The notes beneath the pieces are model-generated. The model ran no database searches, was not told the DNA's origin, and saw only the letters and a program-made list of their open reading frames with translations. From assembly GCA_002269645.1 (NCBI GenBank), contig NIVC01002429.1, forward strand, positions 1-64,000: 64,000 nucleotides of DNA, written 5' to 3'. Shown here piece by piece: positions 2,611 through 51,339 of the stretch; the stretch's first letter is position 1; each line of letters starts with the position of its first letter. The translations under genes and the position numbers were made by a program. The stretch is from Macrostomum lignano. Its lineage: Eukaryota.

Positions 2611-3440
2611 TGTCATGAATGTGTTATTATGACTGTGTGTACTTTGCTACTTTGCTACGCCGGGCCAGTCGGCCGTCCTCTCCCCCCTCCTTAGATATTT
2701 TCTGACTCACCCCTGCACTTCTGCGCGTGCGTACCCCTCCCCTCCCTGCCTAGACCTTTTCTGTTGAGTCAAACCCCCCCATGCTCTGCGTGCGACCCCC
2801 CCCCTGTGCGACCCCGCCCCATTATTTTGTTAGCTTTGCTGCCCCGCCCCTGTTTGTGATTGGCTGCCAGTCCCAGTCTGCCGTGCTGCGCCCCGGCGAT
2901 TGGCTGGTACAGCTCATGCGTTGCCTTGGCTGATGTCTAAGCCCCCTTTTCTGCCTTTATCCCGCGCCCTCGACCCCCAGTTTGCTGCCTATTTATTCGG
3001 CCCCTTGAGACCCCATTCTCGTCGTCTTCGTGGCTCCTCGGCGATTGTGCCAGCGTTGGTTGCTGAATTGCTATTCCTCGCAGAATTGCTAGACAAATAT
3101 ATAAGTAAAGAATATCGAGATCACCACTGCTCTGACGGCGCTGTTTCTTGTACGACTGAAATCGCGGCTGGTAAGCCTTCCAATTTGTACGTCATTTGGG
3201 TCTGCATCTGTACTAGGCACCTTAGAGGGATTAAGTGCGTCGTACGCCGGTCCCACCCCAAGCAGCTCTGCGTCGTACGCGAGTCTGTAGGCTGTCGTGC
3301 GTCGTACGCTCGAGCAGCCTAGTCCCGACGGACACCGCGTCGTACGCGTGTCAGTGGAGGACCGCAGCCAGGGTCAGTACACGAACCCGGGTCTGGGAAA
3401 GGGGCACGAAAGGACCGAGCCCTTGAGCCCCATCATCACA
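2611..3440 (+). repeat. 5' LTR of element 1 (830 bp)
   Basis: Starts TGTCATG, ends CATCACA and matches 10420-11258. Contains two GATTGGCTG (reverse CCAAT) motifs and TATATAA at 3098-3104. Confidence 0.97.
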
Positions 3441-3443
3441 AAT

Positions 3444-3461
3444 TGGCATCCTTGGTGGGAC
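3444..3461 (+). promoter_or_regulatory. Primer-binding site of element 1 (probably tRNA-Arg type)
   Basis: TGGCATCCTTGGTGGGAC lies 3 nt after the LTR. Its complement GTCCCACCAAGGATG-CCA fits a tRNA T-stem/acceptor 3' end with a G discriminator. The Arg assignment is inferred from recalled tRNA-Arg ends. Confidence 0.75.
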
Positions 3462-3548: not shown

Positions 3549-4624
3549 ATGGATGCTGGAGGTGCTGCTGGAGGTGCTGCTGGAGGTGCGGCTGGAGGTG
3601 CGGCTGGAGGTGCGGCTGGAGGTGCGGCTGGAGGTGCTGCTGGAGGTGCTGCTGGAGCCTTTGGTGTTAATGATCTGGTCGCCGCCTTGACTGCCCAGAT
3701 TCAGCAGAACATGCAGCAAGCGGGTGCCCTCAGGATTCAGAGGCCGGTGAAGTATGCTCCAGGAATGAATTTCGTGAAGTGGTTGAGGCTCTTCGTAGCT
3801 TATTGCGATGCCATGCAGATTCCGATGCAGAATCGGCGCGCTCAGTTGCTCAGCAACCTAGACTTCAGCACCTTCCAAGTTGTTGACAACATGAACCTTG
3901 GGACGACTTGCAGTTCGAAGAATTTACCCAGGCCTTGAGGGATAGGTTCACTATGCACCGTACCGTCGTCGACTACCGCACAGAACTGAGCAATAGAGAG
4001 CAGAGTGAGAAGGAGTCGGTAGAAGATTTCTCTGAAGCTGTGATTGAGTTGGTCGCAAACGCCTTTCCTGATGCGCCTGCCGATGTGCGCGATGATCTTG
4101 CGAAAGAGCGATTTATGCGAGGCGTCCGTGCGGGGGTGGCTGTGCGGGAGCGACTGTACATGAGCCAGCCGGAGACGTTAGCGGACGCAATGCGTCTGGT
4201 GCATCAGCTGGAAGCGGCGGTTAGGGCAAGTCATGGTCCACCAGGTCAGGTATCGAAAAGAACCGTTTGTGCTGTTACGACCGAGACCAGAAAGGAGGCT
4301 TCCGAAAGCAGTGAGGTCGAGATGCTTCGAAAACAGCTGGCGGCCATGGAGATGCGAATGAAAGAGATGGAGGAGCGGAGGTCTGAAGAAGCGGCAGAGC
4401 CGACCCCGGCGAGTCGGAAGGCTGTGCAGTGTTTTTCGTGTCGAGAGTGGGGCCATATCTCATCAAAGTGTCCGAAGAAGACCAGTCAGAAGAGTGAAAA
4501 CGGGAAATCGCCAGTACGATGTCACAAGTGCAACGGTGAAGGCCACCTATCCTTCAAGTGTCCGAAGTCGGGAAACGGGCCGAGGGGACCGACCGGGGAG
4601 AGTCGGGACCCTGCCAGGAAGTGA
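3549..4624 (+). CDS. gag: Gag of element 1, split by an apparent 1-nt deletion near 3900 (ORFs 3549-3938 and 3908-4624)
   Basis: ATG at 3549, Gly-Ala repeat N-terminus, capsid-like helical region and two CCHC knuckles (CFSCREWGHISSKC, CHKCNGEGHLSFKC). Adding one G to CTTGGGACGAC joins the two ORFs as NLGDDLQFEEF. Confidence 0.9.
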
Positions 4625-7600
4625 AGTCTCCCAGGAGCGAGGAACCGGGTTGCTCACTAACTCTGTAAATAAATCCAAGTGCGTCTCTGGTGATGGGAAT
4701 TCAAAGAGCAACCTGGTTCATGAGGCGTGTTCGTCGGTATCAACGGAGCCTCTGACAGTTTTTATTTCCGGTGCGGTTTCCGGCAAGCCAGTGGCTCTGC
4801 TGTTAGACAGTGGTGCGAGTGTGTCAGTGCTGAGCTGTGATGTTTTCCTGAGGCTGCCGCAAGAGGTGAGGGAGAGACTGACTGCAATGGACGGTTCCCT
4901 TTCAACGGCCAATGGAGGTGCGATGAGGATGAGAGGCTGCATTGTGCTGGACGTGGAGATTGGCGGCGAGCGGTGGTCAGCGAATTTCTTCGTAGTGGAC
5001 GGATTACGTTATGATGTCATTCTCGGGTCCGAATTTTTCAAACAGCATCGTTGCGTCATCAACTATTCAGAGTTTGTCTTTCGAGTGGGCGATGTTAGAG
5101 TTCCGATACGGCAGAAAGGCGAGCTGCCCGTGGTGTGTCGAATCAAAGCCGAGACAACGGTATTTCTGGAACCGGCGCAAGAAGTGATCATGCCAGCCAG
5201 GGTAGAGAAAAAGGGCGCAAGAAACTGCGGATCGGTCGGCATAACGGAAGAAAAGCCGGTGAAGGCCGCTGAGAAGGATTTGGCGCTGGCTCGAGCTCTG
5301 GTAGCGCCCGGCGTGGATGGACGGCTGCCGATGAGATTGCTGAATACGTCCAGTTGTAGGAAGAGGGTCAAGAAAGGAGAGACGATTGGCTGGTTTATTC
5401 CTTTGGAACCGAACGGAGGTATCAACGTGGTGCGCTTGGACGACGACGTAGAGGCCAAGAATGAAGCGGAGGCATGGGACCCGATCGAAGAATTCCGCGA
5501 GTGGGGTTCGTGTGGCCTGTCGGAGGAGGAGGAAGCCGACTTCAGGGAGCTGATTTCCCAACATCGGGCTGTCTTTGCTAAGGACTCCAAGGATCTCGGC
5601 GTACGACGGTGATGAAGCACGAGATCGACACTGGAGATGCCAGGCCTGTGAAAGAGGCGAGGCGGATTCCCCTACCTGCGGCAGGAAGTGGACAAGGAGT
5701 TGGATGACTTGCTGGAAGCTGGGAGAATCAGCGAGGTTCAGTCCCCATGGTGCTCTCCGGTGGTGTGCGTGAAAAAGAAGGACGGTTCCCTGAGGTTCTG
5801 TTGTGACTACCGGAAACTGAATGAAGTGACCAAGAAGGATGCAGTGCCGTTGCCCAGGACAGATGACCTGTTGGAGAGCCTAGGCGGTGCCAAGATTTTT
5901 TCGACCATGGACATGCAGTCGGGATACTGGCAGATGGCGGTGGAACCCAGCGACAGACTGAAGACGGCCTTTGGCGTTTCACACCGGGTACAGCAGTACG
6001 CCTGGAACGTTATGCCATTTGGATTGACAAATGCACCGGCTTCATTCAGCCGGCTAATGAATGTGGTGTTGGGGAAGTTGTGCTGGAAGACGTGTTTGGT
6101 GTATCTGGACGACCTGCTAGTGTGGTCACGAACGGTAGAAGAGCACCTGGAACGGTTGCAAACGGTTTTTCGACGGTTGCGAGCAGCGAACATCAAACTG
6201 AAGCCGAAGAAGTGCGCATTCCTGCTGAAGTCAGTGACCTTCCTGGGACACGTAGTGTCAGCTGATGGGATCGCCACGAGTCCAGAAAAGATTGCCGAAA
6301 TTCGTGACTGGCCAACTCCGAGGAATGTGAAGGAAGTAAGGTCATTCCTGGGACTGTGCGGGTATTACCGGCAATTCATCGCAGATTTTTCCCGCATTGC
6401 TGAGCCGATGCTGCGACGGACCCGACATGATTGCCCGTGGAGCTGGGATGAGGAGTGTCAAGCCGCATTCGAGGCCCTGAAGGAAAGGTTGCAGGGATCT
6501 GAGGTCATGGCGTTTCCAAACTTTGCGGAGGACGCTGGAGAATTCGTTTTAGACACAGACGGTAGCACAAAAGAAGGAATTGGCGCTGTGCTTTCGCAGG
6601 TGCAGAAAGATGGGAGTGAGAAGGTAATAGCTTACGGAAGCAGGACGTTGTCGCGAGAAGAACGGAATTACTGCACGACACGAGTCGAGTTGCTGGCCGT
6701 GGTGTTTTTCGTACAGAAGTTTCGTTATTACCTGATGGGGCGAGAGTTTCTAGTGCGCACCGATCACAGCAGCTTGAAGTGGCTGCATTCGCTGCGGGAC
6801 GTAGAAGGACAACTGGCCAGATGGCTGGAACTCTTGGCTCCGTACAGGTATCGCATCGAACATCGTCCGGGAGTGAAACATCAACACGCGGACGCTCTCT
6901 CCAGGAAGCCACGTCGGCGCCATCAAGGAAGCGAGAGTTGTCCTGGATGTGCACAAGAGCAGATCGGCGTGAACGCGTTGGGATTGCAGAAGTGGACCTC
7001 GGAGGAGATCAGAGAGAGCCAGAAGATGGACAGCGACATTCGTCAGGCGATGGAGCTGCTGGCTCACAGCGACGGAGAGATAACCGAAGAGCATTTGCGG
7101 CGCATATCACCGACGGCAAGGAGGATTGTCGAAAGACGTCGTGACCTTGAGGTGTCGGACAGTGAGGTGTTGCTGTGTCATACGGCCAGTAGACGTCAGC
7201 CGCAAGTGGTGTTGCCACGGAATATGCTGAGAGCGGTGCTGGAAGAAGCTCATGGTGGACGGAGTGGAGGGCACGTTGGGATTTTCAAGACCAAGGAGAA
7301 GGTGCGGCAATCGTTTTGGTGGCCGGGACTTGGCCGCGAGGTCGAAGAGCACGTAAAAGCCTGTTTGGACTGCACCAAGGCCAAAGCTGGCAAGAAACCA
7401 ATTGCACCGATGGAGCCGATTCCGAGTTCAAGCCCATTCGATATCGTGATGACGGACGTCATCGGGCCGCTGCCACGGAGCAAGAAAGGAAACTTCTACA
7501 TCCTCACGGTGCAAGATGCGTTCTCAAAGTGGCCTGACGCTTATGCCATCCGGAACCAGAAGTCGGCAACGATCGCAAGGGTGCTATTCGAACGCTGGAT

Positions 7601-8759
7601 TGCCAATCACGGGTGCCCCCGGGTACTTCACTCAGACCAAGGAAGGAACTTTGAGTCGGGGATCGTCAGGAAGCTGTGCGAGCTGTTGGGTGTGAAGAAG
7701 ACCAGGACGAGCGCCTACCACCCGAGTGGCAACGGACAGGTGGAACGATTTAACGGGTTCCTGAAGAACAGTTTGCGCACGTATCTGGTACAGAAGGGTC
7801 AGAACGCCTGGGAGGAGTACCTGCCAAGTGCCTTGATGGCTTATCGATCGACGGTCCAGGCGTCCACCGGTTACACGCCCTACTACATGCTGCATGGTCA
7901 GGAGATGCCGCTGGGATTCGAACCAGAGGACCTTAGGCGAAAGACGGACAGCTATCCCTTGTTTGTGCAAGAGATCCAGCAGAACCTGCTTCATGCCCAT
8001 GAACGCATTCGAGAAGGACGCGAGACGGTTCAGCGACGGCAGAAAATGAATTACGATCGGAAAGTAAAGGGCAAAGCGATTCAGAAGGGCGACTCTGTCT
8101 TGCTGTACTATCCGTGCTTGGAGATGGGAGAGAAAAGCAAGTTCCATATCAACTGGCGCGGCCCAGTGAAGGTCCTGGAGAAGCTGTCAGATGCGTTGTA
8201 CCGAGTGCAGGATCCGACACAGCCGCAGAAGACCAAGGTGGTGCACTTCAACAATCTCCGGCCGGTTCAGGGCCAGACGGAGGCGGCAGACGGTCAAGAG
8301 ACTAGAGAGGAAATTGGGAGGGCCAGTTCGGGAAAAACCAGGCCGCGACGTGATAATTCCACTGCTGGACGAAGCCGAAGGCAGAGAGTGCAACGGGGCG
8401 AGACCCAGAGGTGGACCGCAGCGCGAGGGCCGCAGGACCAGGAATCCGAGCAGGAAGATGAAGAGTTTGAAGATCTTCAGCTGCGGTTTCAAGATCCAAG
8501 AGATCACGCTCCACCGGACACCCGAAATCTGGCCGAAGACTGTGAGCCCGGACCTGAGCGTCGAGAAGCAGACGATGACGAAGAAGAGCACGACGATGAG
8601 TCGCGGTACGACGAGGAGCAGGACGAAGAGGATGAGGCAGAGCCGAACGACGCCAACGTACCCGAGCAGGAAGTGAGGACGGCACAGGAGGAAGCAGGGC
8701 GACCAAGACGTCTGCGGCGACCGCCAGATCGGTTTGGGGTCCCGGTGTACTACTACTGA
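4570..8759 (+). CDS. pol: Pol of element 1 (protease, RT, RNase H, integrase), with small frame disruptions around 5600-5680
   Basis: Protease LLDSGASVS; RT motifs PWCSP, LRFCCDYRKLN, DMQSGYWQ, MPFGL, YLDD; RNase H TDGS and VRTDHSSLKWL; integrase HHCC, DDE core (HSDQGRNF, GQVERFN), WRGP motif and acidic tail. The start coordinate is the predicted frameshift site. Confidence 0.93.
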
Positions 8760-8858
8760 AGAAGGGTCCGGTGTACGGCGCTTGGATAGCCAAAGGGGAA
8801 GGGAGGTACATGTCGTGCGTGTCTCATTGCTCATCGGAGTTAGGCCGGACTGTTACAG

Positions 8859-9845
8859 ATGGCGGACCTCTACGAGTGTCTTGGAGTGCAGCTGTGGGCG
8901 TCTGCGGCACAGATTCGGAAAGCGTTCTACGGTCGAGCACGCGAACTGCACCCTGACAAGAGCGCAACAGAGGAGACGCGAAAGAGATTCCAGGAGTGCG
9001 AAGAGGCGTACCGAATACTGTCGTGTCCGTTCCTTAGAAAGCTGTACGATATCTTTGGAAATGCTGTTCGTGACCGGGATGAGATGCTTCGGCTCGCAGA
9101 AGGGATGTTAGAGGATGAAGACATGCCCGACGATCTCCGAGAAGAGATAGAAAGACTACAAGAGAGCGACCGATTAGCTGAGGAGGCGTACGAGAGAGAA
9201 CAGGCGAGGAGGGATGAGGAGCACGTCAAGATGGAGGCAAGTGAGGAGGCCTCAGACGATGAGCAGGACGAAGAGATGAACGAGGCGAGTGAGACACTGC
9301 CGGAGGAGTACGAGGTCGAGAAGGTCTTAGGAGTACGAGTCACGGAGCGAGGAGCGGAGTATCTGCTGCAGTGGGCCGGTGTAGAGGAGCTTGAGACGTC
9401 ATGGGAAGCGGAGGAAGATTGTGCCGGATGTAGAAACCTGATTGAAGAATATCTGCAGAGAGCGTACCGGCTTCAGACAAGACCGTGCCGACCAGTGACC
9501 GTCGCGGAACTGGAGAACGTAGGACCCAGTCGGAAGAAACTGCACCAGGCAATGCGGAAGGGCGACCCGTGGGGCATCTTTGAGGTGCTGCTAGCCCTGA
9601 AGGGGAAGTGCGCCACTGCCTTGGTGGATTTCAAGGAATTCGGTCCGGAGTTGATGCTGCAAATCCTGGGCTACTTGGAGCGAGACGGTCGCAAGTATCC
9701 GGGGCACGGAGTTCGTCGGTGGAGTCGCCAAGCGTGTCAAGCTGTCTACATGTCGGTGATGGTGGTGTTCCCGCTGTTCGACCTGCGACGCCAGGGTTTG
9801 GTCCTGGGTGCCCTCCGTAGGCTGTGGGATTCGTGCTCTGACTGA
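8859..9845 (+). CDS. Accessory ORF3 of element 1: J-domain (HPD) + acidic/coiled linker + chromodomain + unassigned helical domain, 328 aa
   Basis: aa 2-67 DLYECLGV...IRKAF..RARELHPDK...FQECEEAYRILS...RKLYD is a DnaJ J-domain pattern. aa 150-199 EYEVEKVLG...YLLQWAG...TSWEAEEDC..C..LIEEY is a chromodomain pattern. The ORF is uninterrupted and lies inside the LTR boundaries. Confidence 0.9.
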   Translation: MADLYECLGVQLWASAAQIRKAFYGRARELHPDKSATEETRKRFQECEEAYRILSCPFLRKLYDIFGNAVRDRDEMLRLAEGMLEDEDMPDDLREEIERLQESDRLAEEAYEREQARRDEEHVKMEASEEASDDEQDEEMNEASETLPEEYEVEKVLGVRVTERGAEYLLQWAGVEELETSWEAEEDCAGCRNLIEEYLQRAYRLQTRPCRPVTVAELENVGPSRKKLHQAMRKGDPWGIFEVLLALKGKCATALVDFKEFGPELMLQILGYLERDGRKYPGHGVRRWSRQACQAVYMSVMVVFPLFDLRRQGLVLGALRRLWDSCSD

Positions 9846-10407: not shown

Positions 10408-10419
10408 AGGGGACGGGAG
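10408..10419 (+). promoter_or_regulatory. Polypurine tract of element 1
   Basis: AGGGGACGGGAG immediately precedes the TG of the 3' LTR. Confidence 0.9.
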
Positions 10420-11258
10420 TGTCATGAATGTGTTATTATGACTGTGTGTACTTTGCTACTTTGCTACGCCGGGCCAGTCGGCCGTCCTCTCCCCCCTCCT
10501 TAGATATTTTCTGACTCACCCACCTGCACTTCTGCGCGTGCGTACCCCTCCCCTCCCTGCCTAGACCTTTTCTGTTGAGTCAAACCCCCCCCCCCCCATG
10601 CTCTGCGTGCGACCCCCCCCTGTGCGACCCCGCCCCATTATTTTGTTAGCTTTGCTGCCCCGCCCCTGTTTGTGATTGGCTGCCAGTCCCAGTCTGCCGT
10701 GCTGCGCCCCGGCGATTGGCTGGTACAGCTCATGCGTTGCCTTGGCTGATGTCTAAGCCCCCTTTTCTGCCTTTATCCCGCGCCCTCGACCCCCAGTTTG
10801 CTGCCTATTTATTCGGCCCCCCTTGAGACCCCATTCTCGTCGTCTTCGTGGCTCCTCGGCGATTGTGCCAGCGTTGGTTGCTGAATTGCTATTCCTCGCA
10901 GAATTGCTAGACAAATATATAAGTAAAGAATATCGAGATCACCACTGCTCTGACGGCGCTGTTTCTTGTACGACTGAAATCGCGGCTGGTAAGCCTTCCA
11001 ATTTGTACGTCATTTGGGTCTGCATCTGTACTAGGCACCTTAGAGGGATTAAGTGCGTCGTACGCCGGTCCCACCCCAAGCAGCTCTGCGTCGTACGCGA
11101 GTCTGTAGGCTGTCGTGCGTCGTACGCTCGAGCAGCCTAGTCCCGACGGACACCGCGTCGTACGCGTGTCAGTGGAGGACCGCAGCCAGGGTCAGTACAC
11201 GAACCCGGGTCTGGGAAAGGGGCACGAAAGGACCGAGCCCTTGAGCCCCATCATCACA
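10420..11258 (+). repeat. 3' LTR of element 1 (839 bp)
   Basis: Matches the 5' LTR except for four small indels in or beside C-runs (+2, +6, -1, +2 = +9 bp). I saw no substitutions by eye. Confidence 0.97.
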
Positions 11259-11380
11259 GGAGTACCAGGGGTGACAGGGCTACCAGGGGTGACAGGAGTA
11301 CCAGGGGTGACAGGAGTAACAGGGGTGACAGGAGTACCAGGGGTGACAGGAGTACCAGGGATGACAGGGCTACCAGAGGT
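11259..11380. repeat. Right remainder of the 18-bp minisatellite (about 7 units)
   Basis: Same unit as 1961-2610, continuing in register after the TSD. Confidence 0.95.
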
Positions 11381-18839: not shown

Positions 18840-19985
18840 GGGATCTTGGGATTCCTATTGGGATTTCTAGTATTGTGATATTGGGATTCCTAGCATTGGG
18901 ATATTGGGATCCAAGCATTGGGATATTGTGATCCAAAATTTGGGATATTGGGTTTCAAGTATTGGGGTATTGGGATATTGGGGTTCAAGCATTGGAATAT
19001 TGGGATTCAAGTATTGGGGTATTGGGATATTGGGGTTCAAGCATTGGAATATTGGGATTTAAGCATTGGGGTATTGGGAAATAGGGATCCAAGCATTGGG
19101 GTATTGGGATATTGGGATTCAAGCATTGGAATATCGGGATTCAAGTATTGGGGTATTGGGATATTGGGATTCAAGCATTGGAATATTGGGATTCAAGTAT
19201 TGGGGTATTGGGATATTGGGGTTCAAGTATTGGGGTATTGGGATATTGGGGTTCAAGCATTGGAATATTGGGATTCAAGCATTGGGGTATTGGGAAATAG
19301 GGATCCAAGCATTGGGGTATTGGGATATTGGGATTCAAGCATTGGAATATTGGGATTCAAGTATTGGGGTATTGGGATATTGGGGTTCAAGCATTGGAAT
19401 ATTGGGATTCAAGTATTGGGGTATTGGGATATTGGGATCCAAGCATTGGGGTATTGGGACATTGGGATTCAAGCATTGGAATATTGGGATTCAAGTATTG
19501 GGGTATTGGGATATTGGGGTTCAAGCATTGGAATATTCGGATTCAAGCATTGGGGTATTGGGATATTGGGATCCAAGCATTGGAATATTGGGATTCAAGC
19601 ATTGGGGTATTGGGATATTGGGATCCAAGCATTGGGGTATTGGGATATTGGGATTCAAGCATTGGGGTATTGGGATATTGGGATTCAAGCATTGGGGTAT
19701 TGGGATATTGGGATATTGGGATCCAAGCATTGGGGTATTGGGATATTGGGATTCAAGCATTGGGGTATTGGGATATTGGGATTCAAGCATTGGGGTATTG
19801 TGATCCAAAATTTGGGATACTTATTGGGATCCAAGCATTGGGGTATTGGGATATTGGGATTCAAGCATAGGAATATTGGGATTCAAACATTGGGATATTG
19901 GGATTCAAGCATTGGGGTTTTGGGATATTGGGATTAAAACATTGGGATATTGGGATTCCTAAAATTGGGATATTAGGATTCCTAG
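18840..19985. repeat. Minisatellite of 10/20/30-bp subunits (GGGATATTGGGATTCAAGCATTGGGGTATT), interrupted by LTR element 2 and continuing at 24927-25030
   Basis: Visible array; related units resume to the right of the element. Confidence 0.93.
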
Positions 19986-20178
19986 TGTAAGACCGTGGGT
20001 TGAATTGCAGAGAATCAAAACGTGAGGAGACCTCACTGGCTCACGCCAATATATTTATTGCCAAGTTGGGGTGGGTGTAACCACCCTAAGCACGCACACG
20101 CCGCAGCGCTAAACCCCAACCCCCAAACCAGCCAGACGTGCACATCTAAGTGCACGCGCACCAACAAGCCAGACTACA
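19986..20178 (-). repeat. 3' LTR of element 2
   Basis: Direct repeat of 24734-24926; AATAAA on the minus strand at 20059-20054. Confidence 0.97.
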
Positions 20179-20191
20179 CTACTTTCCCCCT
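20179..20191 (-). promoter_or_regulatory. Polypurine tract of element 2
   Basis: Minus strand reads AGGGGGAAAGTAG directly before the 3' LTR. Confidence 0.9.
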
Positions 20192-20214
20192 AGAAGCAAA
20201 AGACAGTTCCAGAG

Positions 20215-23200
20215 TCAAGCAAAGCCCGCCATGTACAAGTCAGGTGGCCGCCGCTCTCTCGCCGACCGCCGCGGAACCGTGACCGGCTCGGCCGGTGCCG
20301 CCGGCTGCTCCTCGGGTGCCTCGTCTGCCTGCAGCTCGGGCCAGAAGGTCACCGCGTCGCCGCCAGGATCGGCCGCCTGCCCGGGCGGCTCAGCGACGGT
20401 GCCGTCGTTGTCGAAGTCGGCGGCCGGCGGCTGGTGGTCTGCTGCGGCCGGAAGCTCCAGTGACGCCCGCCGCTGCACGAAGCACTTGAGGCGGTCGTGG
20501 TGCACCACCAGCCGGCGCCTGCGGCCGGTCTCGTCCTGGATGCGGTAATTGACCTCGCCCAGGCGCCTCAGGACTCGGTACGGCCCCTTCCACTTGGCGC
20601 TCAAACACCGCGTCTGGCCGCGCTTGACGACGGAGTTGCGCAGCATCACGAGCTGGCCCTCTTCGAACGGCACAAACCGAGAGTCCTGGTTGGCCAGCCG
20701 GTTGCGCTCGGCCTGGGCGCTCCGCAGTCGGCCGTGCACCGTGTCGAAGGCGCTCTGCAGGTTCTCCTGAGTCCGCCGCAGGAAGCCGTGATGTCCACCG
20801 TCGGCTGCCGGCCGGTCGCCGCTTATCAGCCAGCTGTCGAGATCCAGCCTCGGTGGCCAGCCGTGGAGGACCTGGTACGGACTGAGGCCGATGGTGCTGT
20901 GCACGGAGGTGTTGTAGGCCCAGGTCACATATGGCAGCTTGCTGTCCCAATCCTGCTGGTTCTCGGCCACCGTCGTCGCCAGCATATCGCCGAGCGTCCG
21001 GTTGCCTCGCTCGACGATTCCGTTGCCGCTCGGATGAAACGGCGACGTGCGCGTCTTTTCGACGCCCAGCTTCTCGCAGAGCCGGCCGAACACCTCGCTC
21101 TCGAATTGCCGTCCCTGGTCACTGTGCAGCACCTGAGGAGCGCCGTGACGCAGAACCACCGACTTGAGCAGCGCATCCGCCACCGTAACCGCGTCGATCG
21201 CCGCCAGGGCTGCCGTCTCCATCCACTTGGAGAAGGCGTCGCACATGCTCAGGATGTACGCCTTGCCATCAGTCGTACGCGGAAGCGGCCCTTTGATGTC
21301 GATCTGCACCAGCTGCCACGGAGCCGTCGGCTGGCACGTCGACTGTAGCGGCGCCTTCTGCGGCTTGGTTGGACTCTTCTTGGCCAGGCAGACCGCACAG
21401 CTGGCCACCCAGTTCTCGACGTCCCGTCGCAGACCAGGCCACCAGCAGCGCTCAGACAATCTCGCTCCGGTCTTGTCGACGCCGAGGTGTCCGCTCTGGT
21501 CACACGAGTGCGCCTGCTGCAGGAAATGTGGCCGCAGATGACCGGGAATGACTGGCCGGCCACCGACCAGCAGGACTCCCGCCGAGCTCACCGAGGCCTC
21601 GTCCAGCAGCTCGCGAACCTGCGCCGCCCATGAATCGGACAGGCTGTCAATCCCTTCGGTCAGCGCCTGGAACGCCTTGCTCAGCAGCGGATCTTGCAGT
21701 TGCTCCTCGTGCAGGCGGCTGTCGTCCCACCGAGGCTGCAGGCGCGTGCCGGCCACCCGGCTCAGCGCATCCGGCACGACGTTGTCCATGCCAGGCCGGT
21801 ACAGCAGCTCGAACGAAAACTGCTGCAGCGTAGAAAGCCATCGCGCCAGCCGACCTTCGGGGTCCTTCGTTGCCAGCAGACCTTGCAGTGGCCGGTGGTC
21901 CGAGTAGACTCTGAAGCTCGGAACACTCAGCAGGTACGTCCTGAAGTGCTTCAAACTCCAGACAAGCGCCAGCAGCTCGCGGTCGGTCGCCGAGTAGTTG
22001 CGCTCGGCCTTGTTGAGGGTGCGAGAGGCGAACGCCACAGGCAGCTCGGCGTCACCGTGCAGCTGGCTGAGCACCGCGCCGACGGCGAACTGACTGCTGT
22101 CGCAGCTGAGCACAAACTGCTTGGTGAAATCTGGCAGTCGCAGCACCGGAGCTGTCGTCAGCCGGTCCTTCAACTCGCGGAACGCTCGCTCGCAGTCGCT
22201 GCTCCACGCGAAGTCCCTCGATTTCACGCTGACGTCGTGCAGGACCCTCGCCGTCTGGCTGAAGCCTGGGATGAACCGGCGGTAGAAACCCAGCATTCCA
22301 AGAAACCGCTTCACCTCCTCGTTCGTCGTTGGGCTGGGCATGCTGCGAATGGCCTCGACCTTGCCGGGATCCGGTGCGATGCCCTGCTCGCTGATCAGGT
22401 GTCCCAGGTACAGCACCCGGCGATGGCCGAACGCGCTCTTGGCCTTGTGCAGCTTGAGTCCCGCGTCTCGCAGCCGCTTAAAAACTTCCGCCAGCCTCTC
22501 TAAGTGCTCGTCGAACGTCCTGCTGAAGACAATGATGTCGTCGATATAAGTCAGCACGGACTCCCAGGACAGGCCGGACATCACCAGCTCCATGAGCCGC
22601 TGGAACGTCGCCGGGGCATTGCACATCCCGAAGCCCATCTTGCAGAATTGCATCAGGCCGCGCGTCGAATAGAAAGCCGTCTTGTACCGGTCCTCCTCCG
22701 CCACCTCCACCTGGTGGTAGCCCTGCCGGCAGTCGATGGTGGAGAACCAGGAGCATCCGACAAGCGCATCCATGGCCTGCTGCAGGTGCGGCAGCGGGTA
22801 TGCATCCTTGACCGTGCAGGCGTTGAGCTGCCGCCAGTCCGTGCACAGTCTGATGTCGCCGTTCTTCTTGCGGACCACCAGCAGGTTGCTGGCCCATGGC
22901 GATGTCGACGGTTCGATGATGCCGCTTTCCAGCATCTGACCGATCTTCTTGTCCACCTGGTCTCGCACAGACAGCGGCAGCCGGCGCTGGACCTGCCGGT
23001 GTGGCCGCGCTCCCGGCTCCAGCTCGATTTGGTGCTGCAGCAACGCCGTCGTGCCCAGGTCGTACTCGTGCCTGGCGAACAGGTCCTCGTTGCTCTCCAA
23101 CAGCTGTCGCAGCCTCGCAGCATCCGGTTCGGGCAGCTCCGCGTTGATGTTCCAACCGACGGGGTTCTCCTGGGCCGCCTCCTGGCGACCGTCCCCGTCT

Positions 23201-23931
23201 GTCATCGCGCCTTCGAACGTGCCGACCGCCTTGTTGGCGTACAGCAGCACGGGCTCCTCTGCAAGGTTGCACATTTTCACCGGGATGCGGCAGTCGTCCG
23301 AGACCGCCAGCACGCGGCCCGGCAGGACGGCAGTGGACTTCACGAAGTCCTCAGACGGCTCAAAGACTCCCTGCTCGCCGCTGGAATCCACCTTGAGCCA
23401 CACCAGCTTCTCGCTGCGGGCGGGCAGCTCCGTAGTTGCCGCCACACGCGCCACCAGGACACTCGGCACCAGGCGACAATCTGCTCGAGCCGGCTCGCTG
23501 CTGAAAGGCACAGCTGTGCCGTCGAACCTGACGACGCCTTCTTTAATGTCAATGGTCATCGCCTGCGACACCTCGCCAATGAAGTCCATGCCGATGATCA
23601 GGCTGGGCTGGATGCCGTCCACGACTGTGAAGCGATGGCGCACGCGGATGGTCTGGCCGATCGAAACATCCGCTGCTGACAGGCCAAGGCAGCGCAGCCG
23701 GGATCCGTCGACAGCCGTCGGCAGCGCACCGATGTCGGTGGAGTCGATCTTGCACTGCAGTCTGTCGAACAGTGACTTGTCCATCAACGAAACTTGCGCG
23801 CCGGTGTCGAGCAGAGCAGGCGCTGACACGCTGCCAAAGTGCACCTTCACGAAGACTGAAGGCGCTGATCTGAGGGCCCCTTTTGAGCGGGTCGGTGCTG
23901 GCCCCAGGCTGCCGACCCTCAGAAGTTTCCC
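20215..23931 (-). CDS. pol: Pol of element 2 (PR, RT, RNase H, integrase), reached by -1 frameshift
   Basis: LLDTGAQVS; PWASN, IRLCTDWRQLN, DCRQGYHQ, YIDD; SCDSS and YSDHRPLQGL; HHCC, HSDQGRQF, GIVERGN, WKGPY. The ORF (20215-24021) is open throughout and in the -1 frame relative to gag. Confidence 0.96.
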   Translation of the reverse strand, partial: GKLLRVGSLGPAPTRSKGALRSAPSVFVKVHFGSVSAPALLDTGAQVSLMDKSLFDRLQCKIDSTDIGALPTAVDGSRLRCLGLSAADVSIGQTIRVRHRFTVVDGIQPSLIIGMDFIGEVSQAMTIDIKEGVVRFDGTAVPFSSEPARADCRLVPSVLVARVAATTELPARSEKLVWLKVDSSGEQGVFEPSEDFVKSTAVLPGRVLAVSDDCRIPVKMCNLAEEPVLLYANKAVGTFEGAMTDGDGRQEAAQENPVGWNINAELPEPDAARLRQLLESNEDLFARHEYDLGTTALLQHQIELEPGARPHRQVQRRLPLSVRDQVDKKIGQMLESGIIEPSTSPWASNLLVVRKKNGDIRLCTDWRQLNACTVKDAYPLPHLQQAMDALVGCSWFSTIDCRQGYHQVEVAEEDRYKTAFYSTRGLMQFCKMGFGMCNAPATFQRLMELVMSGLSWESVLTYIDDIIVFSRTFDEHLERLAEVFKRLRDAGLKLHKAKSAFGHRRVLYLGHLISEQGIAPDPGKVEAIRSMPSPTTNEEVKRFLGMLGFYRRFIPGFSQTARVLHDVSVKSRDFAWSSDCERAFRELKDRLTTAPVLRLPDFTKQFVLSCDSSQFAVGAVLSQLHGDAELPVAFASRTLNKAERNYSATDRELLALVWSLKHFRTYLLSVPSFRVYSDHRPLQGLLATKDPEGRLARWLSTLQQFSFELLYRPGMDNVVPDALSRVAGTRLQPRWDDSRLHEEQLQDPLLSKAFQALTEGIDSLSDSWAAQVRELLDEASVSSAGVLLVGGRPVIPGHLRPHFLQQAHSCDQSGHLGVDKTGARLSERCWWPGLRRDVENWVASCAVCLAKKSPTKPQKAPLQSTCQPTAPWQLVQIDIKGPLPRTTDGKAYILSMCDAFSKWMETAALAAIDAVTVADALLKSVVLRHGAPQVLHSDQGRQFESEVFGRLCEKLGVEKTRTSPFHPSGNGIVERGNRTLGDMLATTVAENQQDWDSKLPYVTWAYNTSVHSTIGLSPYQVLHGWPPRLDLDSWLISGDRPAADGGHHGFLRRTQENLQSAFDTVHGRLRSAQAERNRLANQDSRFVPFEEGQLVMLRNSVVKRGQTRCLSAKWKGPYRVLRRLGEVNYRIQDETGRRRRLVVHHDRLKCFVQRRASLELPAAADHQPPAADFDNDGTVAEPPGQAADPGGDAVTFWPELQADEAPEEQPAAPAEPVTVPRRSARERRPPDLYMAGFA

Positions 23932-24713
23932 TGCGGCTGACCAGTTGGTGTCGGGCACACCGCGGCGGAGTGACCCTTGCCTGAGCACCGGCTGCAGCGG
24001 CTGCCGATCGCCTTTGGGCACCGCCTAGCAATGTGACCCGGCTCGCCGCAGCTGAAGCACTTAATGGGTCCCTTCTGACGCCTGTCTCTTCCGGGTGGTC
24101 CCGTTCGCACGCTGGCTGTCAGCTGCTGCATCTGCTGCTCCAGCTGGCTCAGCCGTCTGTCTTCTACCGACACCGCGGCTGATGAGGCTGTAGTTGCGTG
24201 GCTCACCAGCTCAAGCTGCGCAGCTCTGTCGACGATGGCGGCCAGCGAACACGAGTCCGCGTCCTGGTCCTTCAACAGCGCATCTCTCACGGCAGATGGC
24301 AGGAGGCGCATCAGACGAAACTTCACGTCCTTTTCCCGAGCCGCCACGGAGTCGTCCGGGCGGGCCCGAAGGTGGAGAAGCTTCAGGCTGTAAGCGAGCT
24401 CCCTCAGCGACTCGTTGGGCTGTCGCTTTCGCTCTTCAAACTCCTCCATTGCTCTGTAGCAGCTCAGACTGTTGCCGAAGCACTCGATCAGCTTCTCCTT
24501 CAGCCTTTCATAGCTGGCTGACACGTCTGCCGGCTGCTCCCAGACGAAGATTTGCGCTTCTCCTGTCACCAGCAGTCTCAGCTTCTTTGCCTTCTTCTTG
24601 TCGTCCCATTCGCAGTCGTCGGCGAAGTCCTCAAACGTGCTTAGCCACATTCTCACGTTGGAGTCGCCGCTGAACTTTGGAGGCAATAAACTGGCTTGCT
24701 CTGATTTGGCCAT
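23919..24713 (-). CDS. gag: Gag of element 2 (264 aa)
   Basis: PPKFSGD...WL..FE capsid-like start; two CCHC knuckles (CFSCGEPGHIARRC, CSRCSGKGHSAAVC). Confidence 0.95.
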   Translation of the reverse strand: MAKSEQASLLPPKFSGDSNVRMWLSTFEDFADDCEWDDKKKAKKLRLLVTGEAQIFVWEQPADVSASYERLKEKLIECFGNSLSCYRAMEEFEERKRQPNESLRELAYSLKLLHLRARPDDSVAAREKDVKFRLMRLLPSAVRDALLKDQDADSCSLAAIVDRAAQLELVSHATTASSAAVSVEDRRLSQLEQQMQQLTASVRTGPPGRDRRQKGPIKCFSCGEPGHIARRCPKAIGSRCSRCSGKGHSAAVCPTPTGQPQGNF

Positions 24714-24720
24714 ACTGAGA

Positions 24721-24732
24721 CCGCTGCCACCA
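24721..24732 (-). promoter_or_regulatory. Primer-binding site of element 2 (tRNA-Leu)
   Basis: Minus strand TGGTGGCAGCGG is complementary to the ...CCGCTGCCACCA 3' end of metazoan tRNA-Leu (AAG/UAG type), 1 nt from the 5' LTR. Confidence 0.88.
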
Positions 24733-24733
24733 G

Positions 24734-24926
24734 TGTAAGACCGTGGGTTGAATTGCAGAGAATCAAAACGTGAGGAGACCTCACTGGCTCACGCCAATAT
24801 ATTTATTGCCAAGTTGGGGTGGGTGTAACCACCCTAAGCACGCACACGCCGCAGCGCTAAACCCCAACCCCCAAACCAGCCAGACGTGCACATCTAAGTG
24901 CACGCGCACCAACAAGCCAGACTACA
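24734..24926 (-). repeat. 5' LTR of element 2
   Basis: Direct repeat of 19986-20178. Confidence 0.97.
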
Positions 24927-25153
24927 CTAGAAATGGAATATTGGGATTCATAGAAATGGGATGTTGGGATTCCTAGAAATGGGATATTGGGATTTCTGAT
25001 GTTGAGATCTTAGGGATTTCTTGAAATTGGGGGATTCTTTGGAACTTGAAATTGGTAAAGAAATAATTAGTAAGATTTTGTGTTCATTGTTCAATTAGTA
25101 ATCGTGATCGCTAATCACCAGGATCAAGAGCAGAGTGCTCACGCGAGACTCAC

Positions 25154-41049: not shown

Positions 41050-42382
41050 CGAGGGGCTTTCAAAAAGTTTTGGCAACTGACCTAATATCTCCAAAAGTAC
41101 ATATCATAAAGCGTTGAAACTTTTTTTACAAAATTGCAAACATATATTCTGTTTGTGACACAGACATATATGACTTTTTCCCTCAAATGTGTTATACTTG
41201 CGCATGGCCAATGCAAGGTGGTGTTTTACACTCTGCCAAAAAATGGAGCAGTGCAACCAGACCAGTGGCAATTCTACGTTTTTATGCACTCACGACTTGG
41301 AGAAAATGTGGTCAAAATCCATGCAAACCTGGTCTAGATAGTTGGGGACCAAGCCCCTTCCTATCACACGGTTGCCAGGTAGATAGAGTCTATCAATGCC
41401 GGACTGGCCTCCTTGAATGACGAACCCCAGTCTGGACGACCCAGCACAGCTGTGACTGAAGCCAACATCGCTGCTGTCAGGGCTCTGGTGGACAAGGATC
41501 CAAACATTACCGTCACTGTGATTAGCGAGACTGTTGGTATTTCCGATGGCAGTGTGCACACCATCCTGCATAGCCACCTGGGCCTCCTCAAGGTCACCGC
41601 CTGCTGGGTGCCCCACCTCCTAACAGAAGAGCAGAAGAGGGAAAGGGTGCAGTGCAGCCAGGAATTCCTGCGCAACTTCAGTCCAGCAGGCAGCCAGAGG
41701 CTTTCTGACATTGTTACAGGTGATAAGAAATGGTTTTTTATTTTTAAGTGCCCCAGAAGATGCAGAACAAGGCCTGGGTGGGCTCTGGAAATGCGAGGCC
41801 AACTGTCCTACAGTCTAGCTTTTGGTCTCAGAAAGAGATGTTTGTTATCTTCATTAGCACATCTGGACCTGTGGCTGTCATCATGGTGCCTAATGGACAG
41901 AATGTGAACACCAGCTTCTACTCTGGTATGGTTCTGCCACAAGTCATGGTGTCACTTCATGCAACTCAGCCCTCACGGCTTCAAGCTGGGCGAGTTCACC
42001 TGCACCATGACAATGTGTCTAGTCACATAGTGGCCCTGATGACAAACTTTCTGGCAGCCAACAATATCAAGACTATCCGCCACCTACCTTACAGTCCTGG
42101 CTTGGCTCCTTGCGACTTCTGGGTGTTCGCCAAGCTAACTGAATGGCTGGCAGGATGGAATTTTCACCAATACCAGGACCTAGCTAAGTGCATCAATTCA
42201 GAGCTGAAGGCCATACCTGCTTCTGAGTACCATGGCGCATTTGAAGCATGGATTTGATGGCACCAAAAGTGCATTGAGAGAGGGGGAGACTACATTGAAG
42301 GATTATAACATGCTCAGTTGTTCTTTGCAGTTACTGATTTTTAATAGTTGACCAGTTGCCAAAACTTTTTGGGTGCCCCTCG
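41050..42382 (+). mobile_element. Mariner (Tc1/mariner, DD34D-type) transposon, 1333 bp, transposase frameshifted
   Basis: 30-bp TIRs CGAGGGGC(TTT/ACC)CAAAAAGTTTTGGCAACTG and TA TSD. ORF pieces carry SGRP, WVPHLL, TGDKKW, HHDNV and YSPGLAPCD (degenerate WVPHEL, TGDEKW, HDNA, YSPDLAPSD). Confidence 0.95.
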
Positions 42383-50072: not shown

Positions 50073-50295
50073 CTGCGGGAATCGTAATTCGGAAAATATT
50101 TCTTTGCTAAAGCCTCTGTTAAGTATCTCCAAGGTTACCGAAATTTATCTAACGCTTGAGTCTGTTTAAGAACGTAGAAAGCAGCAATAATGTTTGCTAA
50201 TTATTTTTCAATTCAAATTTTCAATTTCGCAAGAAATCTAAAATTCGAACTTTTTCTAAGAAACAAAGTTCTTATTTTCCGAAAGTTTTCCTCAC

Positions 50296-50987
50296 CTGCC
50301 GTAGCCGTCCACGGAAGTGGCGTCAGAGGCGTAGCCGCGATATGCCGGATCGCCGCAGCCTCCGCTGATGTAGGCGGACGTCAGCGGCGGCGCATGCGAG
50401 GAATGCGTGGGCGGCGGGGGCGGATGCTGCGGCGGAGGCGGCGGAGGCAGCAGCGGAGGCGGCGGTGGACTGGCAACCGGAAGGGAGGCGTCGAACTTGG
50501 CGGCCCGCAGCAGGTCGCCCATGTGCGCCGGGTGCTGGTAGGGGGAGAGGTCGGCGAAGGGGCCGGACAGATCGGCGGGAGGAGCCGGAGACAGCTGAGG
50601 ATGCTGCTGCTGGTGATGATGATGATGCTGATGATGCTGGTGATGCTGATGGTGCAGCTGGTGCTGATGATTCTGCTGAGGCTGATAAGTCTGAAAGGCG
50701 ATTGGCTGGTAGGCGGAGCAGTCGACCCCCGCGTAACCATAGTAACCGGACGGATGGCCCGGGGCCGAGGAGCCGGACTGGAACCCCTGCCGGTAGGCGT
50801 CGGGACCGGCGTGCTCCGAGGAGAAGTGCAGCGCGGTGGCGGCCAGGTAGGGGCTGGGATTGGCGCAGAAGAAGCCGGAGTGGCCCTGGAACGGCGCCAG
50901 AGTGGCGAATGGCGAATAGGAGCTGTAGCCCATGTCCCTGTAGGGCGCCTTGCGCTTCCTGCTGGCCTGCAGGTAGTCCTTCAGCTG

Positions 50988-51020
<33 letters not shown>

Positions 51021-51116
51021 GCCGCCAGCTCCGGCGACGCTACCGGCAGAGCCGCTGGTAACCGCCGCTGTCGCTGCTGCCGCCGCCGCAGCTCTCTTGG
51101 CTGCTCCGCCACGCTT

Positions 51117-51148
<32 letters not shown>

Positions 51149-51294
51149 TGCCACCGCCGCCGAGGCCGCCGGCCGGACATTCCTGGCCGAATCCTTCGAT
51201 TTCGTCGCTTAGAGCCGTTTCCGGTTCGAGTAGCGGAAATGGCAGCTTGTACTCCGAGTTGCGCTTGGCCATGAGCTCGGCGCCCTCCTCTTCG
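50296..51294 (-). CDS. AHR: AHR-like gene, large exon: end of PAS-B region plus Gly/Ala/His/Gln/Pro-rich putative transactivation domain
   Basis: EEEGAELMAKRN..KLPF matches the AHR DEEG.EHL.KR...LPF motif; TTCCAG acceptor, GTGAG donor. Confidence 0.88.
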
Positions 51295-51339
51295 CTGGAA
51301 TTCATGGTTGAGTATTTTTTTAATTGGGAAAGCTGTTTT

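Follow-up and report, generated by a model that had tools for sequence, protein, structure and literature searches.

To our knowledge, animal LTR elements have only a small number of accessory genes besides env, and for most of these no role has been explained. J-domains use their HPD motif to stimulate Hsp70 on clients held by the other domains of the same protein, while HP1-type chromodomains read methyl-lysine on histone H3. The polyomavirus T antigen is a parasite-encoded recruiter of Hsp70 acting through its J-domain, the VANC proteins of VANDAL transposons are transposon-encoded anti-silencers, and LEDGF/p75 is a tether that combines a reader with a helical bundle.

Among described LTR elements, the rotifer ORF3s (DEDDy exonuclease, GDSL esterase; PMC5408684) are captured, modular accessory genes located in the env position, the chromoviruses MAGGY and Tf1 are gypsy elements with a classical chromodomain at the integrase C-terminus (PMC3350952), and CERV of the C. 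elegans element Cer1 is an accessory regulator produced from spliced RNA (PMC10309623). On the host side, DNAJC9 (PMC8221569) and the plant DNAJs found with PKL (10.64898/2026.08.25.747133) are J-proteins acting on chromatin.

The gene analyzed here, ORF3, lies at positions 8859-9845 of the window, the whole 64,000-nt stretch of Macrostomum lignano DNA, inside a young Ty3/gypsy element. It resembles the rotifer ORF3s as a captured, modular gene in the env position, and a nuclease-type fold occurs both among them and in two of its lineages (N and O); the passages describing the rotifer genes name neither a J-domain nor a chromodomain, whereas the Macrostomum gene has a shared novel core with swappable add-ons (PMC5408684). 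Its chromodomain is classical, as in chromoviruses, but is encoded by a separate ORF, fused to a J-domain and confined to one sub-lineage (PMC3350952). ORF3 would share with CERV its origin from spliced RNA, with no common domain apparent from the description of CERV (PMC10309623), and with DNAJC9 it shares an N-terminal J-domain, an acidic stretch and a proposed client on the chromatin side (PMC8221569).

The gene is apparently unreported. No J-domain ORF3 in an LTR element was found in the open literature searched, so that an already catalogued architecture, named originally as a refutation, did not turn up there; Repbase, Dfam, GyDB and closed-access papers lay outside this scope, and one of these databases or the classification paper (ref. 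16 of PMC12801592) may list it. Term searches of PMC6338049 and PMC13524379 returned nothing relevant. The main text of the M. lignano LTR paper (PMC12801592) contained no DnaJ, chromo, Hsp40, J-domain or ORF, and in its supplement the matches shown, at the first places of each term, were host transcripts and one tree label. TatD was not mentioned in the one review of accessory domains that was searched.

Anatomy of the element and of ORF3

The element and the domains of ORF3 were mapped in the window as follows.

2607-2610, +: target-site duplication, left copy (GGAG), within an 18-bp minisatellite
2611-3440, +: 5' LTR (TG...CA), with a TATA-like box at 3098-3104
3168-3176, +: putative splice donor in the LTR, exon end 3170; equivalent site at 10988 in the 3' LTR
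3444-3461, +: primer-binding site, 18 nt, complementary to tRNA-Arg(TCT)
3549-4624, +: gag with two CCHC knuckles, in two frames in the window copy
4362-8759, +: pol (protease, RT, RNase H, integrase, acidic tail), frames broken in the window copy
8853-8858, +: candidate splice acceptor TTACAG, abutting the ORF3 ATG
8859-9845, +: ORF3, accessory gene, 328 aa
8859-9059, +: J-domain of ORF3 (Pfam PF00226), HPD at 8949-8957 (aa 31-33)
9060-9167, +: helical extension of the J-domain, kept in all lineages
9168-9305, +: acidic linker
9309-9461, +: chromodomain, HP1/Swi6-like; cage residues Y151 and W172, third position V175
9486-9842, +: C-terminal domain (CTD), predicted basic five-helix bundle with a Gly/Arg loop, of no known family
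10408-10419, +: polypurine tract
10420-11258, +: 3' LTR
11259-11262, +: target-site duplication, right copy (GGAG)

Four small indels separate the two LTRs, which show no substitutions between them, and the target-site duplication measures 4 bp. The M. lignano genome contains a tRNA-Arg(TCT) gene that matches the primer-binding site; of the two candidate places fetched, one was a tRNA. The TG...CA ends, the target duplication, the primer-binding site and the polypurine tract are those of a Ty3/gypsy element, as is the gene order assigned by Pfam (gag, then protease, RT, RNase H and integrase). The element is neither a chromovirus nor an env-carrying, errantivirus-like one: Pfam returned no Chromo match on pol or the integrase and no env family in ORF3. 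The pol product resembled that of Mlig-id38 by eye only (Gmr1/Osvaldo cluster as used in PMC12801592). The frame splits in gag and pol look specific to this copy or to the assembly, and ORF3 is unaffected by them. A second gypsy element occurs at 19984-24929 on the reverse strand, inside a tandem repeat; it has identical 198-bp LTRs and a polypurine tract almost directly after pol, and carries no ORF3.

The open frame of 328 aa described between the LTRs is present and starts 99 nt past the pol stop at 8759. Both domains named at first passed in Pfam: the DnaJ match (aa 3-64) scored 59.1 bits (E 4.7e-16) against a cut-off of 27.8, the Chromo match (aa 151-201) 47.7 bits (E 1.4e-12) against one of 25.1, and no other family passed. 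The J-domain is complete, as had been described, and its predicted structure was confident, superposing at about 1 Å rmsd on solved J-domains over 64-70 residues; its four helices, with HPD between helices II and III, are those of a class C Hsp40. The linker called very acidic holds 20 D/E against 5 K/R over aa 104-149. The absence of an env protein also held: in addition to the Pfam result, the best 19-residue Kyte-Doolittle mean was 1.35, so that ORF3 has no clear membrane helix, and the J-domain begins at residue 3, which speaks against a signal peptide.

The chromodomain, first placed at about 9306-9455, was corrected to 9309-9461. Its best solved matches were Swi6 and HP1/CBX (E 2e-10 to 3e-9), assigning it by sequence to the HP1-type fold. 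The aromatic cage of the HP1 chromodomain consists of Y24, W45 and Y48 (PMC3350952); the window protein has two of the three aromatics, Y151 and W172, with V175 at the third position. In the full-length model this region had a pLDDT under 50, since only two rows of the alignment include it.

A third folded domain, at aa 210-328, had been overlooked when the protein was described as J-domain, linker and chromodomain. This CTD was predicted as five helices (pLDDT 87.5, pTM 0.80, 17 sequences) and is basic (21 K/R, 12 D/E), with a conserved Gly/Arg loop. Pfam, fold and PDB sequence searches assigned it to no family: the best Foldseek E values were 0.31 (PDB) and 0.43 (viral), and the best VIA match (Z 7.9, rmsd 2.4, 80 aligned) fell in the range of generic helical bundles. 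The ESM Atlas gave no usable match to the whole ORF3 or to the C-terminal part of one homologue. The CTD is thus an unclassified module with a predicted stable fold.

Copies, lineages and selection of the ORF3 family

A search of the M. lignano genome (764 Mb in 5269 contigs) with ORF3 returned 138 matches, 17 of which were full-length, stop-free and 98-100% identical to the query. Copy counts are inflated because the assembly is described as redundant (PMC12801592). A 3' flank was obtained for 18 of the 29 loci of this window family that were fetched, giving 16 distinct starts, two of them seemingly one site. Tandem repeat was found in 6 of the 16 distinct insertion flanks, against 36% of the window (24.5% in a separate count), and this weak comparison, the window not being genome background, revealed no clear bias.

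The variant codons of 15 gap-free, full-length copies comprised 26 synonymous and 9 replacement ones, a pN/pS of 0.10 (binomial p 1e-10). Gapped copies were left out of this set and the loci were taken in order of similarity to the query, a procedure that tends to lower the number of replacements. The chromodomain contributed 3 synonymous variant codons and no replacement. The control counts, from four copies, were 9/5 in the integrase core and 8/21 in the pol tail. In some copies of the window family ORF3 is lost or broken; other copies keep it under purifying selection, as expected of the dedicated accessory gene that had been proposed, and the 17 near-identical, full-length matches are not those of a fragment in neutral decay. 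A one-off capture was rejected in view of the many copies, the purifying selection and six further lineages.

In seven lineages, A/B (the window's), E, F, G, H, N and O, ORF3 follows pol in the same orientation; the integrases of these lineages show about 40-59% likeness. Ten weaker-match regions comprised four host DnaJ genes without pol and six homologues behind a gypsy pol, and in three of the seven regions of one later batch the fetched flank contained no pol. Lineage E gave 21 full-length matches (20 stop-free), lineage H 15, and lineage O 15 stop-free ones of 92-100% identity over the first 303-307 residues. The ORF3 protein of lineage B is about 57% identical to that of the window, and those of E, F, G and H about 25-37%. 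A J or J-like domain, its helical extension and a CTD of about 115 aa are common to all lineages, and the CTD is the conserved core of the family.

Sister lineages gave dN/dS values of 0.075-0.294 in 12 of 15 segments, with upper bootstrap bounds of at most 0.51 and dS near saturation; two of the remaining segments were saturated and one was a recombinant tail without replacements. The chromodomain had a dN/dS of 0.24. Thirteen element-type J-domains formed one branch (96/94) against 23 host J-domains in a tree of 74 columns with weak deep branches, which singled out no nearest host gene; the single branch shows one origin of the element J-domains. The integrase, J-domain and CTD trees recovered the same sister pairs, with the deep branches open. 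DNAJC9 was not supported as donor, as the element J-domains did not group with L229, the host J-protein that we take for DNAJC9 from a motif; DnaJ and Chromo are, moreover, the sole Pfam families of ORF3. No host gene bearing the CTD was found by genome searches or by the CTD profile search.

Seven integrase relatives had no listed ORF3 match. One of them carries an O-type gene, one a TatD piece and one a short end recognized by eye; of the other four, one is cut by a LINE-like insert and three showed no ORF3. The close relatives L241, L242 and L243 have lost ORF3 wholly or mostly, and L241-family relatives without it occur in several copies. Its retention in some relatives and absence from others suggest that ORF3 is useful but not essential. 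In L239 (1163-3849), a close relative of the window family, a LINE-like endonuclease/RT, labelled by eye, is inserted just past the integrase. The lineage B loci L030 and L042 are recombinant and internally deleted, with an RT about 90% like that of the window family, a diverged J/chromo part and window-like last 50 ORF3 codons; their ORF3 holds a 640-nt AT-rich insert, for which an intron was ruled out by the lack of GT-AG ends, and the junction is also seen as a loose end in one run.

The add-on domains differ among lineages. Chromo exceeded the Pfam cut-off only in A, the database protein P0002 and B, that is, in one of the seven lineages, and a profile of these three chromodomains matched none of 13 other sequences, giving no support to a decayed chromodomain that visual inspection of lineage H and P0126 had suggested. 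The third cage position is Leu in P0002 and Phe in lineage B, whose cage has all three aromatics. Lineages N and O have a TatD-like tail instead of the chromodomain, located as follows.

L246, 60-1733; L247, 59-1732; L049, 2413-3066: TatD-like domain fused to ORF3 (lineages N and O)

The tail scored above its cut-off in lineage N (E 6.7e-8, 32.7 bits, cut-off 27) and below it in lineage O (E 5e-5). In alignment with solved TatD, His and Glu-Thr-Asp positions, presumably the TatD catalytic residues, are replaced, so that the tail is probably inactive.

HPD was intact in all 12 sequences examined (A, B, E, F, G, H, N1 and outside homologues) and also in E2, and is retained in six of seven lineages across saturated synonymous distances; two decayed copies have LRPD and HLD in its place. 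Lineage O, a young, multi-copy family, encodes a 558-aa ORF3 with a J-like domain from which HPD is absent in the three copies examined, so that Hsp70 recruitment would not be universal in the family. Two of its copies differ at 26 synonymous and 24 replacement codons, with a pN/pS of 0.13 in the CTD and 0.55 in the J-like part, from few changes. Neither chromodomain nor HPD is universal. The functional pairing of J-domain and chromodomain put forward originally was right in that both domains are real, but they are not a conserved unit, because only one lineage among the seven has a chromodomain, the window protein has Val as its third cage residue and an HPD-less family exists.

Among 5.8 billion proteins, the ORF3 query found only P0002 (76% identical; J-domain, chromodomain and partial CTD). 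Of the nine matches to a CTD profile run against 1.84 billion representatives, two are M. lignano models, one is P0002 and five come from run assemblies or metagenomes; the ninth, the repeat protein P0128 (E 5.5e-4), was dropped as a chance match. A J-domain stands at the start of three of the five run-assembly or metagenome homologues and of a longer cluster member of a fourth. Scans of IMG/VR and JGI contigs returned generic J-domains only, with a CTD or gypsy pol in none of 160 kept loci. The family thus appears rare in the sequence collections searched, its only named host so far being M. lignano. ORF3 is best explained, from these comparisons, as an old accessory gene of a Macrostomum Ty3/gypsy clade.

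Three homologues named Macrostomum lignano in UniRef/NCBI are chimeric models that join pol pieces to ORF3. The public gene models P0121, P0122 and P0003, named 'J domain-containing protein', combine element pol, ORF3 and host-like exons. Element copies account for about two fifths of the best 150 DnaJ matches in the genome, and the host DnaJ genes occur mostly in sets of three. ORF3 copies make the DnaJ genes of the genome look more numerous than they are, and have already entered chimeric gene models.

Probable expression from the LTR

In other elements env is made from spliced RNA. ORF3 is probably produced in the same way, from a transcript joining the LTR donor to an acceptor at its start codon. 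An AG lies at, or at most one base from, the first ORF3 codon in nine of the 12 loci compared, TTGCAG lies 16 nt upstream in the other three (H-type), and in lineage O the same motif lies 7 nt upstream. Four of the 12 loci have no ATG there and would thus need an upstream exon. The donor-like site is located downstream of the TATA box, and one contig (of X10, one of four runs) leaves the LTR exactly at the donor, with its exon end at 3170. The sequence that follows is a repeat, preceded directly by AG in nine of 24 genomic places, and the one such place examined has a canonical acceptor. On the basis of this contig the LTR donor appears to be used. No LTR copy was located beside the repeat places among 40 of 176 candidates scored. 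ORF3 was covered in all four runs, which consist of contigs and whose RNA nature is a guess; the joint from LTR donor to ORF3 was listed in none of the four, and contigs drop rare forms.

At L216:1503 and eight other places the LTR donor is seemingly spliced to an acceptor in unrelated, repeated coding-like sequence, which suggests LTR-driven chimeric transcripts. Heat induction of the window family was rejected, as no canonical heat-shock element (HSE) was found in the LTR of the window element. The HSE-bearing Gmr1/Osvaldo family of PMC12801592 is without ORF3, and none of six ORF3 start motifs was found in that paper's HSE-family file.

Possible functions of ORF3

The reading that we tentatively favour makes ORF3 an adaptor in the nucleus that guides Hsp70 to nucleoprotein complexes on the DNA or nascent RNA of its own element, most likely relieving silencing. 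Spliced RNA would yield the protein in the manner of env, the CTD would bind a target that is most likely the DNA, chromatin or nascent RNA of the element itself, and the J-domain would summon host Hsp70/Hsc70 to loosen a protein complex there. Targeting would be sharpened by lineage-specific add-ons, the HP1-type chromodomain here and the TatD-like fold in two lineages, and the gain would most likely be relief of silencing and more full-length element RNA. The basic CTD and both add-ons point to chromatin or nucleic acid, judging from their sequences; nuclear location, stimulation of Hsp70, the client and the anti-silencing effect are what we infer. ORF3 may act like the T-antigen J-domain or VANC without kinship to them, these and LEDGF/p75 being functional analogies only, for which our searches found no link in sequence or fold.

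It is unlikely, if conceivable, that ORF3 specifically reads methylated H3 and that Hsp70 strips HP1-type repressors from element copies. The protein combining J-domain and chromodomain belongs to a broader family of modular design; this adds to its evolutionary interest and makes the reading of methylated chromatin less certain. If true, an animal LTR element would encode a co-chaperone of its own as an anti-silencing factor driven by Hsp70, with a new targeting domain as its base and a reader swapped between lineages in an arms-race-like manner.

We regard as rather unlikely a replication-cycle cofactor in which ORF3 and Hsp70 act on the element's Gag, Pol or integration complex, assembling or opening particles or dismantling the complex after strand transfer, with the chromodomain as a free tether that steers insertion in trans as chromovirus integrases do in cis. 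ORF3 does travel with its element, the sister pairs agreeing across the three trees, its integrase has no chromodomain of its own, and MAGGY-type chromodomains bind H3K9me2/3 and have been proposed to target insertion (PMC3350952). However, the insertion flanks showed no clear bias (6/16 against 36%, a weak comparison), L241-family relatives without ORF3 occur in several copies, and the second gypsy element of the window has identical LTRs without it.

Doubtful to the same degree is a regulator at the RNA level, either a CERV- or Rev-like factor whose basic domain binds unspliced element RNA and aids its export or shields it, or one that weakens PIWI/piRNA complexes through Hsp70. Since the LTR donor appears to be used, full-length RNA would hold an intron and need export help, CERV of Cer1 being such a factor (PMC10309623); the conserved basic Gly/Arg loop would fit this role, the TatD-like tail would suit nucleic acid, and in flies Hsp70 can cause piRNA biogenesis to collapse (10.1101/423210). 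A selected HP1-type chromodomain fits chromatin better than RNA, and the CTD showed no likeness in sequence or fold to known export factors.

That ORF3 works independently of Hsp70, with the CTD doing the work, the J-fold as a scaffold and the chromodomain competing with host HP1, seems improbable: all but one of the seven lineages have preserved HPD although their synonymous distances are saturated, against which stand the young, multi-copy lineage O without HPD and its CTD as the most constrained part (pN/pS 0.13 against 0.55, two copies, few changes). It is very improbable that ORF3 is a neutral passenger, a piece of host sequence captured and carried along by a successful element: ORF3 is lost or broken in some copies and relatives, but it has one origin and long retention, evolves under purifying selection within and between lineages with dN/dS well under 1, and has no CTD-bearing host gene among those searched.

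In the favoured reading as an Hsp70 adaptor, this selected, multi-lineage J-protein family would offer a testable route by which a transposon turns host Hsp70 against silencing at the level of chromatin or RNA, in a model animal for which RNAi and transgenesis are available. The naturally occurring series of proteins with a chromodomain, with a TatD-like tail, with neither and with HPD lost is ready for structure-function comparison.

Elsewhere in the window, a fragment at 41760-42257 on the forward strand is weakly like a mariner/DDE transposase (E about 0.1). A 337-aa low-complexity ORF at 50292-51305 on the reverse strand, with Gly/Ala/His runs and no solid Pfam match, resembles an exon of a host regulatory gene.
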